Origin: a virus
Virus record (IMG/VR): IMGVR_UViG_3300046373_000136
Span: 1-64,000 of that record
Strand: one strand, 5' to 3'
DNA: 64,000 nucleotides
The notes under the pieces were generated by a model. It ran no database searches and was not told where the DNA came from. It saw nothing but the letters and a program-made list of their open reading frames with translations. Shown here one piece after another: positions 3,398 to 52,718 of this stretch (within the stretch, counting starts at the first letter, position 1; each line of letters opens with the position of its first letter). The position numbers and the translations under genes are program-made.

Positions 3398-6046
3398 ATG
3401 CAACATCACGTATTCTCTCCAACCCCTTCCGATGCATACCCGGTAGCTGTTCTCATTAAGCCTACCGCCTTCACCAAGCATGAGCTGGTCAAGGCGTACA
3501 TCAATCCGTTGGTGGAACGTGGTGTGGTACTTGAAGACATCATCGCCTTCACGTTGCAGTATGACGATCCGAAGAAGGTGTCCAACAAGACCGTCAAGGC
3601 ATACCTCGAGCAATTGTTACCCGAGCTGGATGCCCTGGGCACCAAAACCCTGTTCGTCATGGACGGCACCTATTTCAAGGTGCTTACCAACGAGAAGAAA
3701 GCCGAAGTCCACTTGGGCTACGTCCTGCCTTGCAAGATCAAAGGATATGAGCACATGAGCGTGGCACTGGGCATGAACTGGCAGTCCATGATCTACAACC
3801 TGGACTTCAAGGACAAGCTGGCTCTGGCCCTGCATGCGGTGGCATCCCACCAGAAAGACGAGTACGAGACCATTGGCAAGGACATCGTGCATTCGGAATA
3901 CTATCCAGGAAGCGTCCAGGAGATCGCAGAGGCGTTAAACGCCCTGCACCAATACCCTGAACTGTCTGCCGACATCGAAGCCTTCTCGCTGCGTTTTAAC
4001 GAGGCTGGCATCGGTTCCTGTGCATTTGCCTGGGATCAACACAATGGCATCGCCTTTGCCTGTGATTACCAAGACCTTGGGGAAAAGAATTCCGATGGGG
4101 AATATGGTCGATATGTCAAGAATCGAGCCATCAGGCAACTGCTGAAGCAATTCTTCACCGAGTACAAGGGCCGCATCAAGTGGCACCGGGCAGCGTATGA
4201 CTGCAAAGTCATCATCTACACCCTGTGGATGGATAACCTGCTGGACCAGCATGGCTGTCTGGATGGTCTGGACATCATGTATGCCCGATGTGACGACACC
4301 AAGCACATTGCCTACCTGGCCTTGAACAGTACCGCTGGCAACGAGCTGGGATTAAAGGTGCTGGCTCACCCGTTCGCTGGTAACTATGCCCAGGACGAGA
4401 TTAAGGATATCCGACGCATTCCGCTGCCACAGTTGCTTCGTTATAACTTAATCGATTGCCTGGCCACAAACTACGTGTGCGACACCTACTATCCCCGGAT
4501 GGTGCAGGACGAGCAGTTAGAGATTTATGAAACCCTGTTCATGCCGAGCCAAAAGCTGCAAACGCAAATGGAACTGGTGGGCATGCCGATGTCGGAGGCC
4601 AAGCTCCAAGAAGTAAAGATGAAGCTGATGGGAATCAGCGCCGGCCATACTGCGCACATGCGTAGTCAACCCCTCGTCAGGGAGATGGACCTGTGGGTCC
4701 AGAAGAAGCAACAGGCTGCGGCCAATGAAAAGCTGAAGACGTTCTCCAAGCTGCTGGTCTGCTTCCAGGATCACCGATTCAATCCCGGCAGTCCTCAACA
4801 GATGCAGGTGCTTCTGTACGAGAAGATGGGCCTACCCATCATCGACTTGACCGAGACCAAGCAACCTGCTGTGGGTGGTGAAACGCTGAAGAAGCTGATT
4901 CATCACTGCCAGTCCAATGACCATGTGCTGATCTTGGAAGCCCTAATCGGCTGGTCTGAAGCAGACAAGATACTGTCCACCTTCATCCCGGCATTCGAGC
5001 TGGGCATCAAGAAGACTACGGATGGCATCCTCTGGCTCCATGGCAACTTCAATCTGGGTGGCACAGTCTCCGGCCGGCTCAGCTCGTCGGACCCGAACAT
5101 GCAGAACATCCCTGCCAACTCCACCTTCGGGAAGTTGATCAAGAAAATCTTCATGGCTCCACCGGGCTGGATATTCTGTGGTGCTGACTTTAATTCTCTT
5201 GAGGATTACATCAGCGCCTTGACCAGCCGTGATCCGATGAAGCTCAAGGTCTATACCGATGGCTTCGATGGTCACTGTCTGCGAGCAGTCTTCTACTACC
5301 CCGAGGAACTGGGCTATATCGATGCCACTGATCCGGATCAAGTCAATGCGATTGCAGAGAAGACGCATCCGTTCGCCTATCTGCGGCAGGAGTCGAAGAC
5401 ACCGACCTTCGCACTCACCTATCAGGGCACGTATTACACCCTGATGCAGAACTTGGGCTGGCCAGAGGAAAAGGCCAAGCGTGTCGAGAAGGCGTATCAC
5501 GAACTGTACAAGGTGAGTGACGAATACATCCAGGGGCGTATTGAAAATGAAGCCTGCAAACTTGGGTACGTCACTGTGGCCTTCGGCCTCCGTGTCCGTA
5601 CCCCATTGCTGGGGCAGGTGGTGTATGGCAAGCGCATGCCGTACGAAGCCAAGGCTGAAGGCAGGACCGTGGGTAACGCCATGGGCCAGTCCTACTGCCT
5701 GCTCAACAATCGTGCTGCTGTGGACTTCTGGCTCAAGGTGTGGGCATCGGAATATCGTTATGAGATTCTGCCCTGCGCCATGATCCATGACGCAATCTAT
5801 GCCCTGATCGTGGACCATCCTGAAGTAGTTGAGTGGGCTAACCGCGAGCTGATCAAGTCGATGAGCTGGCAAGAACTGCCCGAGCTGCAACATGACACCG
5901 TGAAGATCGGTGCCGCACTGGATATCTTCTGGCCGAACTGGGCCAACGGTATCACCCTACCCATCAACGCCGACCAAGCAACGATCCTCGCCACCTGTGA
6001 AAAGGGACAAGCGAAGTATGAGACCAAGCTGAAGGAGGCAGCTTAA
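3398..6046 (+). CDS. family A DNA polymerase (N4-type) with 3'-5' exonuclease and N-terminal extension
   Basis: Exo I SADIE, GTVSGRLSSSDPNMQN, motif A ADFNSLE, motif B RQESKTPTFALTY, motif C IHDAIY. SD AAGGA. No intein visible. Confidence 0.96.
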   Translation: MQHHVFSPTPSDAYPVAVLIKPTAFTKHELVKAYINPLVERGVVLEDIIAFTLQYDDPKKVSNKTVKAYLEQLLPELDALGTKTLFVMDGTYFKVLTNEKKAEVHLGYVLPCKIKGYEHMSVALGMNWQSMIYNLDFKDKLALALHAVASHQKDEYETIGKDIVHSEYYPGSVQEIAEALNALHQYPELSADIEAFSLRFNEAGIGSCAFAWDQHNGIAFACDYQDLGEKNSDGEYGRYVKNRAIRQLLKQFFTEYKGRIKWHRAAYDCKVIIYTLWMDNLLDQHGCLDGLDIMYARCDDTKHIAYLALNSTAGNELGLKVLAHPFAGNYAQDEIKDIRRIPLPQLLRYNLIDCLATNYVCDTYYPRMVQDEQLEIYETLFMPSQKLQTQMELVGMPMSEAKLQEVKMKLMGISAGHTAHMRSQPLVREMDLWVQKKQQAAANEKLKTFSKLLVCFQDHRFNPGSPQQMQVLLYEKMGLPIIDLTETKQPAVGGETLKKLIHHCQSNDHVLILEALIGWSEADKILSTFIPAFELGIKKTTDGILWLHGNFNLGGTVSGRLSSSDPNMQNIPANSTFGKLIKKIFMAPPGWIFCGADFNSLEDYISALTSRDPMKLKVYTDGFDGHCLRAVFYYPEELGYIDATDPDQVNAIAEKTHPFAYLRQESKTPTFALTYQGTYYTLMQNLGWPEEKAKRVEKAYHELYKVSDEYIQGRIENEACKLGYVTVAFGLRVRTPLLGQVVYGKRMPYEAKAEGRTVGNAMGQSYCLLNNRAAVDFWLKVWASEYRYEILPCAMIHDAIYALIVDHPEVVEWANRELIKSMSWQELPELQHDTVKIGAALDIFWPNWANGITLPINADQATILATCEKGQAKYETKLKEAA

Positions 6047-6059
6047 TTAAGGAAAAAAT

Positions 6060-6728
6060 ATGAGCCTGTTCATCTACAAGTGGGGCGAAGACGACAATGG
6101 GGAAACTGGCTGGATATCGAAGATGCATGACAACTTCGATGTCTCCTATGGTGACCTCATCGTCCATGATGTCATTGAACACTTCCCCCGTGGTCACAAG
6201 CACGGGGGTGCTGTTGATGAGCTGCTGGCACTTGGTGCTCGTGCATGGATACGCATAGAGAGTGGTTGGTTCTGGCGTGGTCCCTACACCAAGATTCAAC
6301 CCAAAGAAACCTGGGGCTACGAGATACGCCGCATTGCAGAGCATAACGACTTGGACAGCATCCCCCGAGCCAAGCCGATTGATGAGATCGAGTCAGATTG
6401 TGATTGTGATCTAGTCGCCTGCCTCCCTTTTGCCGCTAAGGAGATCAATGAATACCACATGGAAATCGAAAACGAGGACCATGTTGACCTAAAAGGTGAT
6501 GAACCTGATCTGGTGAACTGTCTTTATTGGTTCCGGCGTGGTGTTCTAGCTGCTCAGAAACGTTACAAGGGTAGAAGTGCTGACGAAGTAATGTGGTTGG
6601 CTGATCAGATGAAAGAAGAACTGACTAACCCACGATTCGCCAATGCTCAAGATGGTGACGAGCTGCATATCCGTGTGCATGAAAAAGACATGGAATTTAA
6701 AATTACCCACAAATCGCTTTACAATTAA
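6060..6728 (+). CDS. hypothetical acidic protein with HDxxEH putative metal-binding motif
   Basis: 222 aa, SD TAAGGA, LIVHDVIEHF followed by DELLALG. Confidence 0.7.
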   Translation: MSLFIYKWGEDDNGETGWISKMHDNFDVSYGDLIVHDVIEHFPRGHKHGGAVDELLALGARAWIRIESGWFWRGPYTKIQPKETWGYEIRRIAEHNDLDSIPRAKPIDEIESDCDCDLVACLPFAAKEINEYHMEIENEDHVDLKGDEPDLVNCLYWFRRGVLAAQKRYKGRSADEVMWLADQMKEELTNPRFANAQDGDELHIRVHEKDMEFKITHKSLYN

Positions 6729-50294: not shown

Positions 50295-52718
50295 TTACCG
50301 GCTAGTGCCGGGATTCTGTCGCCGGAAGTCTTCCGGGTACTGGGCATTCGGGTCTTCCCAGATGCCTACCTTTTTCGCCTTGGCACCGGCTTCTGCTTCA
50401 GCCAGTTTGGGATCATTCGAGTACCGTCGATACAACCAGGCTGCACCCTTTTCCAGCATCTTCTGATCCACGCCGACACCTTCGACTTCGATCTGGCAAT
50501 AGGACCGGGAGTCCTTGCCTTCACTCGATGATGGTGCCCGTGTGACACGCACGGTGACTTCCTTATTCTCGATCATGTCCTTGAGTATCTTCTTGGACTG
50601 TTCACCGAAGTTCTGGCTGGGCTTGCCGTATTGCATGTGCGCCACTTCCGGTGCATCGATACTGTCGATCCGGCAGTTCAACTTGTTGCCATCCTTGGTG
50701 GTCAGATTGGCGCCATCACCGTCACCGACATAGGTCACCATCGCCCGTTGTCCACCCGGCTTGGCTGCTTGAACAGCCGTAACCGGAGGAGACCAATTCA
50801 CATCCTTGGGAATCTCCACTGGGGAATTCGACTTTGAAGGGGCACTGGAACCAGAGATACTGACAAAGCTCGTTTCCTTTACCGTGGCAGCGTCATCACC
50901 TGGACGAGACAAGGCCGGAGCCACCTGATCCAGTGTGGGATTAACAGTGCCTCGGCCCCCTTCGACACTGGGGTTGGCCGGCAAGCTGTTACGCCGAGCC
51001 ATGGACACCATGTTGGCTGCACGGGTACCCGATTGCACATAGTTTGGGTCTTCGGCATAGCCACCTGCCTTCAGGCCGGAGAAATAAGCCTGGGCATCCT
51101 GGGTATTGAGGGCACCGGCATAGCGTCGATTGCCGAGTAGGGTACTGAAGTCATTGGCGAAACCATCGGCATCATTGTATTTCCGGTACTTGTCTACCGA
51201 GCCGTTCATGTTGTCCTTGGCTGCGACACCATTCCCGTTCTTGGAGAAGTCCTTGATATTGCCGAAGTTATTGGTGCCAGGGATGACGGACTTACCCCAG
51301 CCAGTTTCCAGGCCCCATTGACCGATGACGGCATCCACAGGCACGCCGAGCTGCTGCGCAACTCGCTCAGCCTGTGGTCCCACCTGTTTCATGAAGGCCG
51401 ATACCCGTTCTTGCTGGGTACCGGAAATGGGTGCAGTAGGTGTGCCTGAAGGCACATTACTTATTTCACTACTTTTTTTTTGAGCCTCCGTTAGCGCCGG
51501 TCCTGCGAAACTCGAACTTAATGGAGATAGTCGATCCGTGGTTGCCCGCAGCACTGCTTTGACTTCCTCAATTCGCTGCTTGTCCTGGTTCGATGTATTG
51601 TCTTGGCCGGTAACGGCTGACTTGTGGCCAAAGCGATTTTGCAGGATGTTGGCGAAGTCATCACCACGCCGGCTGAAACCGATAGCCAGTGGGTTATCCG
51701 TGGATTGTTCCACAGCCTTCAGTGCATCCGTGACGGAGATCGGCATCTTGATGGGCTTACCATCCTTATCCGTACCCACTTCGATACCACCATCACGGAA
51801 GTACTTGTTCAGGTTGTACAGGATGTCGCTCTGCTGCTTCTCATCGATACCCCGAGCTTTTAGCCCTTTCATCAGGGCTTCTTTACCTGCTTCGGTATCA
51901 AGTGTACCCGAAGCCATACCCGAGTTTTCAAGTAGTTGCTTGTAGGCTTCTTTCTTGCCCAGTTCCAGCTTGTCGTTCTGGGCCTTACGCAGAGCGGCAG
52001 CTTTCTCATCAGACTGTGCTTGATAGTGCAGTTTTTCTGCATCAGCACGGGTTTGTGCCACACCCAGTTGACCACGACTGATATCCACGTTGGCCGCAGA
52101 GTTTGCAATCTCGCCTTTGAGTTTATCCACCATCAATGGACGATCTGCTGTTTTCCAGTCGAACTCAGTATTAATCCGTTGATCCGAAGTGTTCTGACGG
52201 GTCAGATCACGCTTGAATGCAGCGATCTCATTGGCCTGTGGCATGGAGGGGAAGTTAGCCAGGATTTGATCTCCGGCCGCTGTATCACCCCGTAGATAGG
52301 CGGCTTTGGCTTGATCAGCCAGTGGTTGATGGGCCACCACATCCTGTTGGACACCAAACTGCTGTTCTTTGGTCAAGTTGTCACGCAGGATGCCAGGACG
52401 GGCATCTTCCGCAGCGTTGACTGCATTGCGGTCAAACTGGGCACCGAAGCCTGCCTTCATCTCAGCCAGTGCACCGGACTGTTGCAGAGCTGCCATTTCC
52501 TCTGGCGACTTCGCTCCCCGCAGTGCATCCATCAATGCCTGAGTATTGTTGACCTTCTGGTTCTGCCAGTTGGCATCCTGATTGTCAGTGACCATGCCCA
52601 GCGTCTTCTGTAGAGCAGCGAAGCCGGCATTAAGATCGGCACTAGCAAAGCGCATGGGTTGGGCAGCTTCAGCCGGCGTAGGGCCGGTGACATTGCGCCA
52701 GGTAATTGGCTCAGCCAT
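50295..52718 (-). CDS. internal virion protein (gp51 position) fused to a GH73/FlgJ-like muramidase and a staphylococcal nuclease (SNase) domain
   Basis: N-terminus MAEPITWRNV; QWGLETGWG...NNFGNIK...GGYAEDPNY (GH73); VGDGDG...RIDSIDAPE...Q.FG..S...G.AW.Y...AEAGAKAKKVGIW...P.DFR (SNase). Confidence 0.85.
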   Translation of the reverse strand: MAEPITWRNVTGPTPAEAAQPMRFASADLNAGFAALQKTLGMVTDNQDANWQNQKVNNTQALMDALRGAKSPEEMAALQQSGALAEMKAGFGAQFDRNAVNAAEDARPGILRDNLTKEQQFGVQQDVVAHQPLADQAKAAYLRGDTAAGDQILANFPSMPQANEIAAFKRDLTRQNTSDQRINTEFDWKTADRPLMVDKLKGEIANSAANVDISRGQLGVAQTRADAEKLHYQAQSDEKAAALRKAQNDKLELGKKEAYKQLLENSGMASGTLDTEAGKEALMKGLKARGIDEKQQSDILYNLNKYFRDGGIEVGTDKDGKPIKMPISVTDALKAVEQSTDNPLAIGFSRRGDDFANILQNRFGHKSAVTGQDNTSNQDKQRIEEVKAVLRATTDRLSPLSSSFAGPALTEAQKKSSEISNVPSGTPTAPISGTQQERVSAFMKQVGPQAERVAQQLGVPVDAVIGQWGLETGWGKSVIPGTNNFGNIKDFSKNGNGVAAKDNMNGSVDKYRKYNDADGFANDFSTLLGNRRYAGALNTQDAQAYFSGLKAGGYAEDPNYVQSGTRAANMVSMARRNSLPANPSVEGGRGTVNPTLDQVAPALSRPGDDAATVKETSFVSISGSSAPSKSNSPVEIPKDVNWSPPVTAVQAAKPGGQRAMVTYVGDGDGANLTTKDGNKLNCRIDSIDAPEVAHMQYGKPSQNFGEQSKKILKDMIENKEVTVRVTRAPSSSEGKDSRSYCQIEVEGVGVDQKMLEKGAAWLYRRYSNDPKLAEAEAGAKAKKVGIWEDPNAQYPEDFRRQNPGTSR

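Follow-up and report, generated by a model that had tools for sequence, protein, structure and literature searches.

Why does a phage gene that joins a virion protein to two enzyme domains carry, at the joint of these parts, the one long homopolymer of its genome? The question is posed by an 807-amino-acid (807-aa) gene of the IMG/VR virus record IMGVR_UViG_3300046373_000136. The window considered here, positions 1 to 64,000 of this record, covers the initial 64 kb of a phage genome of 78,154 bp assembled as one contig, whose origin is probably a soil metagenome. An earlier note on the window, made from its letters, proposed programmed slippage at a run of nine adenines (A9) in this gene, with a structural form of ~415 aa and an enzyme-armed form of 807 aa made at a set ratio. 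We conclude that A9 is probably (at a rough probability of 0.7) a selected recoding signal, which would give a bare (415–419 aa) and an enzyme-armed (807-aa) tunnel protein from one gene, mostly by polymerase slippage. For the two forms the comparative support is strong, a slippery signal being kept at the joint, whereas their set ratio is something that we infer.

The A9 run and its surroundings

On the − strand the gene reads ACG GAG GCT CAA AAA AAA AGT AGT GAA ATA AGT AAT GTG CCT TCA GGC ACA, exactly as given in the earlier note. The run, correctly assigned there to codons 413–415 and described as the longest homopolymer noticed in a coding sequence, is the sole homopolymer longer than 6 nucleotides (nt) in the whole 78,154-bp genome. 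It lies, as had been claimed, between the structural N-terminal half of the protein and its muramidase (GH73) and staphylococcal-nuclease (SNase) domains, whose coordinates are listed in Table 1 together with those of the other features. AAA accounts for just 26% of the lysine codons of this phage, and therefore the probability of an A run of at least 9 given the peptide EAQKKSS and the phage codon usage is as low as 0.010.

Reading in either shifted frame ends almost at once. The −1 frame continues as AAG TAG TGA and the +1 frame as GTA GTG AAA TAA, so that stops are met within 1–3 codons; the immediate stop in the former and the stop within three codons in the latter had both been predicted. 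Stops this near in both shifted frames are found at 1.0% of codon positions in the genome. The computed products of transcripts with A7, A8, A10 and A11 are 415, 418, 416 and 419 aa long, respectively, and the predicted masses are ~45 kDa for the short forms and 86.9 kDa for the full-length protein. With nine adenines the run reaches the length of ~9 nt given as the threshold for transcriptional slippage (PMC1088944). At the same time, A_AAA_AAA forms an in-frame X_XXY_YYZ heptamer over codons 414–415, its first A being supplied by the preceding CAA. One Logan contig of depth 16, from the probable source sample, is identical to the window at the site and has a clean A9 consensus; the run length is thus supported by a contig consensus, and contigs hide minor variants.

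Of the flanking elements proposed in the note, the GGAGG 3 nt before the run was found in its place. The AT-rich patch is there too, with a local GC content slightly lower than the overall one (0.48–0.49 vs 0.53), but the enrichment is only mild. The downstream hairpin is likewise present, but it was rejected as a stimulator: it starts 16 nt away from the run, 46 of 200 shuffles fold as well (z = −0.70), and it has no counterpart in the other A-run loci (L010 and L071, introduced below). It is the sole hairpin there, and no stimulatory stem-loop or pseudoknot was found ~5–9 nt downstream of A9.

An internal start for the enzyme half was also considered and rejected. The in-frame GTG at codon 422 lies ~31 nt from the GGAGG, and the GTG in the +1 frame opens an ORF (open reading frame) of 2 codons.

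The phage encodes four tRNAs beyond the window end (G000:C1:68116-68520), namely Ser(GCU), His(GUG), Gln(UUG) and Asn(GUU). The codons on either side of the run, CAA and AGT (CAA AAA AAA AGT AGT), are decoded by two of these, Gln(UUG) and Ser(GCU). This match may be a coincidence or may reflect tuning of decoding at the site.

Slippery sites at the same joint in related phages

The protein family was collected by searching residues 1–430 against 1.84 billion representatives, and 749 relatives matched. Most of them are stand-alone proteins of 380–520 aa, and the predicted size of the short form agrees with theirs. Among the best 150 representatives 13 exceed this length and have an SNase domain as their C-terminal part; in these fused proteins the joint carries the conserved peptide EA[QE]KKSP. 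Many stand-alone homologues terminate at the KK motif plus 0–6 residues (..EAQKKTFP*, ..AQKKTQ*, ..KKVTK*), and hence the A run sits exactly at the end of the ancestral protein. The nearest homologues (P0002, P0121-P0123) were compared at the protein level. SNase is a recurrent C-terminal cargo of this family of ejection proteins (family members P0150-P0268, L003-L023), and the window lineage has in addition inserted GH73, a domain missing from its closest fused homologue, P0002.

In IMG/VR, 67 loci of the family were retrieved, as well as the locus L071, which was found through its nuclease part. Nine lineages besides the window carry the nuclease. The relatives with a slippery signal at the same joint share 25–50% amino-acid identity. 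The alignment of homologous genes, suggested in the earlier note as a check, supports the proposal: A9 was found in L010 and L004, A10 in L071 and A12 in the contig X2, with nearby out-of-frame stops in the fusions.

Two of the relatives are in-frame fusions. In L010 (648 aa) the joint reads GAG GCT GAA AAA AAA AGC CCT GAA ATA, that is, A9, and stops follow after 2 codons in the −1 frame and after 3 in the +1 frame, the +1 stop TAG being placed as in the window. In L004 (977 aa; L005 is identical) A9 comes from the peptide LKKKS, written as TTA AAA AAA AAG TCT, and the stops are met after 5 and 3 codons. Hence all three in-frame fusions, including the window, have exactly A9, encode it by different codons and have out-of-frame stops within at most 5 codons. 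On the tree of N-domains the A9 fusions occupy separate long branches among split and extension-free lineages; this tree is the result of a quick search, and several of its joins are flagged as unsure. The probability of a run at least as long as the observed one, given the peptide and local codon usage, is 0.12 for L010, 0.11 for L004 and 0.057 for L071, compared with 0.010 for the window.

In all four A-run lineages (window, L010, L004 and L071) GAGG lies 3–5 nt upstream of the run, the background frequency being 0.0027 per nt. The residues encoded at this point differ (EA, EA, ED and GGD), and the recurrence of the motif exceeds chance. Its spacing fits neither the dnaX rule nor one single direction of shift.

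In other relatives the nuclease is encoded in another frame. L071 ends in GAC GAA AAA AAA AAG AAG TGA, which contains A10. Its nuclease ORF, in the −1 frame, opens 40 codons upstream and extends across this run. A near relative of the window itself, X2 (run X2, a 242-nt contig of depth 2 corresponding to window positions 51322-51566), has A12 instead of A9. Its first ORF ends in ..EAQKKKTLK*, whereas GH73 is encoded in the −1 frame and has the same amino acids as in the window; 10 nt of deletions are seen just downstream of the run. Thus the fused or split state appears to differ even between close relatives.

Five further split loci have short in-frame heptamers (Table 2), all of which fall inside an overlap of 5–36 codons with the −1 nuclease ORF. 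In total, an in-frame X_XXY_YYZ heptamer within a short overlap with the −1 ORF was found in 6 of 7 split loci. For comparison, we considered 35 non-redundant genes of the family without a nuclease ORF. An in-frame heptamer occurs in the last 15 codons of one of them (Fisher p = 9e-6 against the split loci) and in the last 40 codons of two (p = 4e-5). A −1 shift at the listed sites would give trans-frame products of 643–671 aa (792 aa for L023) with the joints ..AAKK|SPVT.., ..PKK|AEVT.., ..FPK|GEVT.. and ..EKKK|EVTT.., and these predicted products are collinear with the natural fusions (645–689 aa) and their KKSP motif.

In ~600 kb of related loci, every run of at least 9 lies at this joint. 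In five whole records there are two other long A runs, both non-coding (Table 1), one being an intergenic A23 and the other the T-tract of a hairpin terminator; as candidate recoding sites they were rejected.

RNA structure was predicted for the 65 nt after each site and compared with dinucleotide-preserving shuffles (Table 2). In the five heptamer loci the predicted stems begin 3–6 nt past the heptamer, whereas the stem of L004 is ~27 nt away. Thus the sites seem to form two classes: long runs of conserved length without structure, and short heptamers with a stem-loop. The same split is known from dnaX.

Table 2. Slippery sites of the nuclease-bearing loci and predicted folding of the 65 nt that follow them
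Locus	Site type	Heptamer	Folding energy, kcal/mol	z
L003	heptamer	A_AAA_AAA, in frame	−42.5	−4.0
L007	heptamer	A_AAA_AAG, in frame	−30.5	−3.3
L008	heptamer	C_CCA_AAA, in frame	−24.9	−2.4
L018	heptamer	C_CCA_AAG, in frame	−32.5	−4.1
L023	heptamer	G_GGA_AAA, in frame	−26.1	−3.7
L071	A run		−11.5	+0.4
L010	A run		−11.6	−0.2
window	A run		−12.8	−0.7
L004	A run		−26.3	−2.5

The fused gene of L004 keeps a GGTGAC...GTCACC stem after its A9 (L004:6150-6185) that resembles the stems of L003, L018 and L023; it may have remained from a former frameshift site. L003 itself (IMGVR_UViG_2838247499_000001, 74,119 bp, a complete N4-like genome) is classed as a provirus by IMG/VR. As the N4-like family is regarded as strictly lytic, this class is unexpected.

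Probable polymerase slippage and the alternatives

Under standard decoding, the gene would yield the 807-aa protein with its tunnel domain, GH73 muramidase and SNase. In a fraction of expression events the frame would be shifted on A9 and a stop would be met within 0–3 codons, giving a tunnel-only protein of 415–419 aa. Most likely it would be the host RNA polymerase that slips on A9, producing A8 and A10 transcripts in the style of Thermus thermophilus dnaX; a ribosome slipping on A_AAA_AAA may contribute. Polymerase slippage is favoured for the window because the site classes split as in dnaX and the window belongs to the long-run class. In relatives of the L071 and X2 type, the −1-frame extension would be joined via slippage on A10 or A12; in the heptamer relatives, it would be joined by classical −1 ribosomal frameshifting at the heptamer and stem-loop. 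Given the architecture of a tunnel of 9–10 subunits, the purpose may be a set mixture, with enzymes on just some of the subunits. We hold, a little less firmly, that a whole branch of N4-like phages probably carries a recoding module in the ejectosome tunnel gene, which would set the share of subunits with nuclease (with or without muramidase) and would have moved repeatedly among in-frame A9, out-of-frame A10/A12 and heptamer plus stem-loop.

The best surviving alternative, although an unlikely one, is that both products come mainly from the ribosome: by a −1 shift on A_AAA_AAA, by a +1 shift via the close GGAGG as in prfB, or by sliding on the lysine run. Such an origin would agree with the in-frame X_XXY_YYZ heptamer inside the run, with the GAGG kept 3–5 nt upstream in all four A-run lineages despite differing amino acids, and with the short-heptamer relatives, which clearly resemble ribosomal frameshift sites. 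However, the fused genes conserve the length of the run (9) and not the heptamer, the stimulatory structure is absent within 5–9 nt, and L071 needs a −1 shift, yet a close Shine–Dalgarno (SD) element favours +1. Moreover, the SD-like element of E. coli dnaX stimulates −1 shifts from ~10–14 nt, not from 3–5 nt, and in the window GGAGG ends 3 nt before A9. The earlier note had named both dnaX mechanisms. The ribosomal one is not supported for the window locus, given the wrong SD spacing and the lack of a structure close by, and polymerase slippage of the Thermus type fits better.

Alternatively, A9 could be a contingency tract at the level of DNA, with replication slippage flipping the genotype between the fused (A9) and the split or truncated (A8/A10) states and creating a mixed population. 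This is compatible with recoding and may act alongside it, but as an explanation we consider it rather improbable. Related phages do have A9, A10 and A12 in different frame relations, X2 being split and the window fused, and runs of this kind are hypermutable in replication as well, according to Baranov et al. (PMC1088944). On the other hand, the relatives with heptamer and stem-loop at the same joint cannot work through DNA slippage. After a frameshift in the window, the enzyme half has no evident start codon or ribosome-binding site, and the contig of depth 16 shows A9 as its clean consensus, though contigs hide minor variants.

Still less probable is that selection concerned the peptide, EA[QE]KKSP being an old basic C-terminal tail or a cleavage or docking site kept after the fusion, with the A run incidental and its slippage a noise. 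The motif is indeed conserved in the 13 fused proteins and closes many stand-alone homologues. Nevertheless, the codon choices are improbable given the peptides, and where unrelated IMG/VR genes, seven in number, encode the pattern E-A-[QE]-K-K-x-P-E, they do so with mixed AAA and AAG codons and no long run. L004 attains A9 through the different peptide LKKKS and the rare TTA codon. Peptide selection also leaves unexplained the heptamers and stem-loops of the split loci, and out-of-frame stops lie within at most 5 codons in all three fusions.

An assembly or sequencing artefact, by which the true run would have another length and the gene would really be two ORFs or have a shorter run, can be dismissed almost entirely: homopolymers are error-prone and the evidence comes from contigs, but the ORF stays open across the run and is homologous to other proteins on either side of it, the depth of the source contig is 16, and in-frame A9 recurs in two independent metagenome assemblies of distant relatives.

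Several points count against polymerase slippage on a selected A9. The polymerase acting here is assumed to be that of the host, on the basis that N4 late genes are transcribed by host RNA polymerase. The KK motif is conserved as a peptide too (EA[QE]KKSP), and hence a part of the A-richness belongs to the protein level. Long homopolymers mutate in DNA, and a conserved tract could therefore serve genotype switching. All relatives are metagenomic contigs, and X2, with its 242 nt and depth 2, is weak evidence. One split locus, L011 (5250-5669), has its nuclease ORF in the +1 frame and no slippery site; a start codon near the joint is absent as well, and this exception may be a decayed gene or an assembly indel. 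Finally, a GTG overlapping the upstream stop (GTGA) is available as a start for the nuclease ORF of split loci, and termination-reinitiation could express the nuclease separately without a frameshift. That would weaken the frameshift reading of the split loci, but not the conservation of the A run.

Gene setting, known systems and implications

The 807-aa gene is in the gp51 position of N4, since the vRNAP (virion RNA polymerase) gene adjoins it downstream. The gap between the two ORFs is 92 nt, and the gp52- and gp53-like genes are on the upstream side, where a 754-aa gene is found beside the 191-aa gene. The cassette order gp54-like, gp53-like, gp52-like, 'ejection protein', vRNAP is common to the window, Litunavirus phPLST and phage Littlefix (loci L001 and L002). 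For residues 1 to ~415, phrog_6467 was the sole match. The profile of the N-terminal half matches the solved DEV gp72 (8VXQ, E 1.7e-16) and 11mn (E 3.9e-6), a 359-aa 10-chain entry named '66 kDa protein', which is probably the N4 delta-C gp51 decamer. N4 gp51 is a decamer and DEV gp72 a nonamer, both periplasmic tunnels, according to PMC13434306. Because of these profile matches and the synteny of the cassette, the gene appears to encode a gp51-position periplasmic-tunnel ejection protein with two added enzyme domains, and by homology it would assemble as a 9–10-mer. In the SNase domain, the D-G-D, R, A-P-E and R columns are invariant (alignment A3).

Table 1. Coordinates of the features discussed, in the window unless a record or locus is named
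Feature	Position	Strand	Remarks
807-aa gene, N4 gp51 position	50295..52718	−	ORF + translation; periplasmic-tunnel N-domain, GH73 and SNase, in this order
N-domain, residues 1-415	51474..52718	−	family matches; predicted short isoform; in most relatives a protein of its own
GH73 glucosaminidase, residues 448-563	51030..51377	−	Pfam PF01832, E 4.4e-19; confined to the long isoform
SNase, residues 683-789	50352..50672	−	Pfam PF00565, E 2.6e-16; confined to the long isoform
A9 slippery run (CAA AAA AAA AGT)	51473..51481	−	gene nt 1238-1246; codons Q413 K414 K415
GGAGG, Shine–Dalgarno-like	51485..51489	−	sequence; ends 3 nt upstream of A9
−1 frame stops TAG TGA	51466..51471	−	translation of A10 transcripts, or translation after a −1 ribosomal shift, would stop here with ..QKKK
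+1 frame stop TAA	51461..51463	−	would end the A8-transcript product after ..QKKVVK
6-bp hairpin TGTGCC-TTCA-GGCACA	51441..51456	−	16 nt after A9; probably outside the signal
vRNAP, 3482 aa	39754..50202	−	phrog_2206, 1793 bits; next gene downstream
gp52-position gene, 191 aa	52718..53293	−	phrog_2646; upstream neighbour in the ejection cassette
GAGG of L010	~5309-5312
GAGG of L004	~6107-6110
GAGG/GGAGG of L071	~3451-3457
A23	G001:C1:62939-62961		intergenic
A10	G002:C1:14471-14480		T-tract of hairpin terminator, opposite strand

The closest known system is dnaX of Thermus, where A9 with stops in both other frames gives ~50% of short product (PMC1088944, PMC5009743). The window resembles the Thermus thermophilus gene in having an in-frame A9 in one long ORF with near stops in both shifted frames, in that no stimulatory RNA structure is needed, and in that the short product would be without the C-terminal domains of the long one. 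It differs in that the gene encodes a phage virion ejection protein and not a replicase subunit, and in that the window and its A-run relatives have the conserved GAGG 3–5 nt upstream; slippage is here a prediction from the sequence. E. coli dnaX, with its A_AAA_AAG, upstream SD and stem-loop, is matched by the heptamers of L003, L007, L008, L018 and L023, A_AAA_AAG and A_AAA_AAA among them, with a stem-loop 3–6 nt downstream. As in dnaX, homologous genes would use either ribosomal or polymerase slippage. Unlike E. coli dnaX, in the split relatives the long product would come from the shift and the short one from standard decoding, and the window has no nearby structure and an SD-like element that is too close.

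In the tail assembly chaperones G/GT of lambda and of many tailed phages and in the T7 capsid proteins 10A/10B, a −1 frameshift near the gene end gives some of the molecules an extended C-terminus and fixes the ratio of the two isoforms in the assembly. The present family is similar in that an extension would be added near the end of a virion-related gene in a fraction of molecules. However, the gene family is another one, that of the Schitoviridae ejectosome tunnel, what is added is an enzyme part (nuclease with or without muramidase), and in some members, the window among them, the polarity is reversed, the long form being the default. The overlapping ORFs of L071 (A10) and X2 (A12) could be joined by one extra transcript A, as in Shigella mxiE and transposases of IS elements (PMC1088944), whereas in the window the ORFs are already joined and slippage would truncate the product. 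With N4 gp51 and DEV gp72 the gene shares the homologous N-terminal half and the place in the cassette (gp53-like, gp52-like, gene, vRNAP).

The searches for an earlier description and for further relatives gave little. The two annotated Schitoviridae relatives inspected, Litunavirus phPLST and Littlefix, have neither the KK motif nor a slippery run nor a nuclease extension. Cultured phages gave no match with blastn, tblastn gave solely distant N-terminal matches (residues 1-156) in known Schitoviridae, and for the SNase part there was no match among the N4-like records of the phage collection. No close relative was found in scans of viral contigs (queries P0001, A1 and P0123) or metagenome contigs (A1 and P0123); a scan of genome contigs gave one unrelated nuclease, and a scan with the L010 protein gave L010 itself alone. 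A literature search for N4-like phages, Schitoviridae or ejection proteins together with slippage, frameshift or staphylococcal nuclease retrieved nothing relevant. Phage N4, internal virion proteins and ejection proteins are not mentioned in the accessible part of a 2016 recoding review, nor is recoding in N4 ejection proteins in that of PMC13434306. The mechanism is of a known kind; what is new, as far as checked, is the gene family, the enzymatic cargo and the coexistence of three solutions in one phage lineage.

If true, the site would be a viral counterpart of dnaX and the first described case of recoding in a podovirus ejection protein, and it would place a new gene family on the short list of conserved recoding events. 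Its homologues would swap polymerase slippage and ribosomal frameshifting, which is so far known mainly from dnaX. With the natural variants (A9, A10, A12 and heptamers), material for testing the rules of slippage is already at hand. For annotation, an 'ejection protein' ORF and the 'nuclease' ORF next to it in an N4-like genome may represent one trans-frame product, and fused genes may yield a short product too. For the biology of these phages, the finding suggests how a periplasmic tunnel of 9–10 subunits could carry bulky enzymes on just some of them, and it raises the question of what role is played by a staphylococcal-type nuclease injected before the phage genome.

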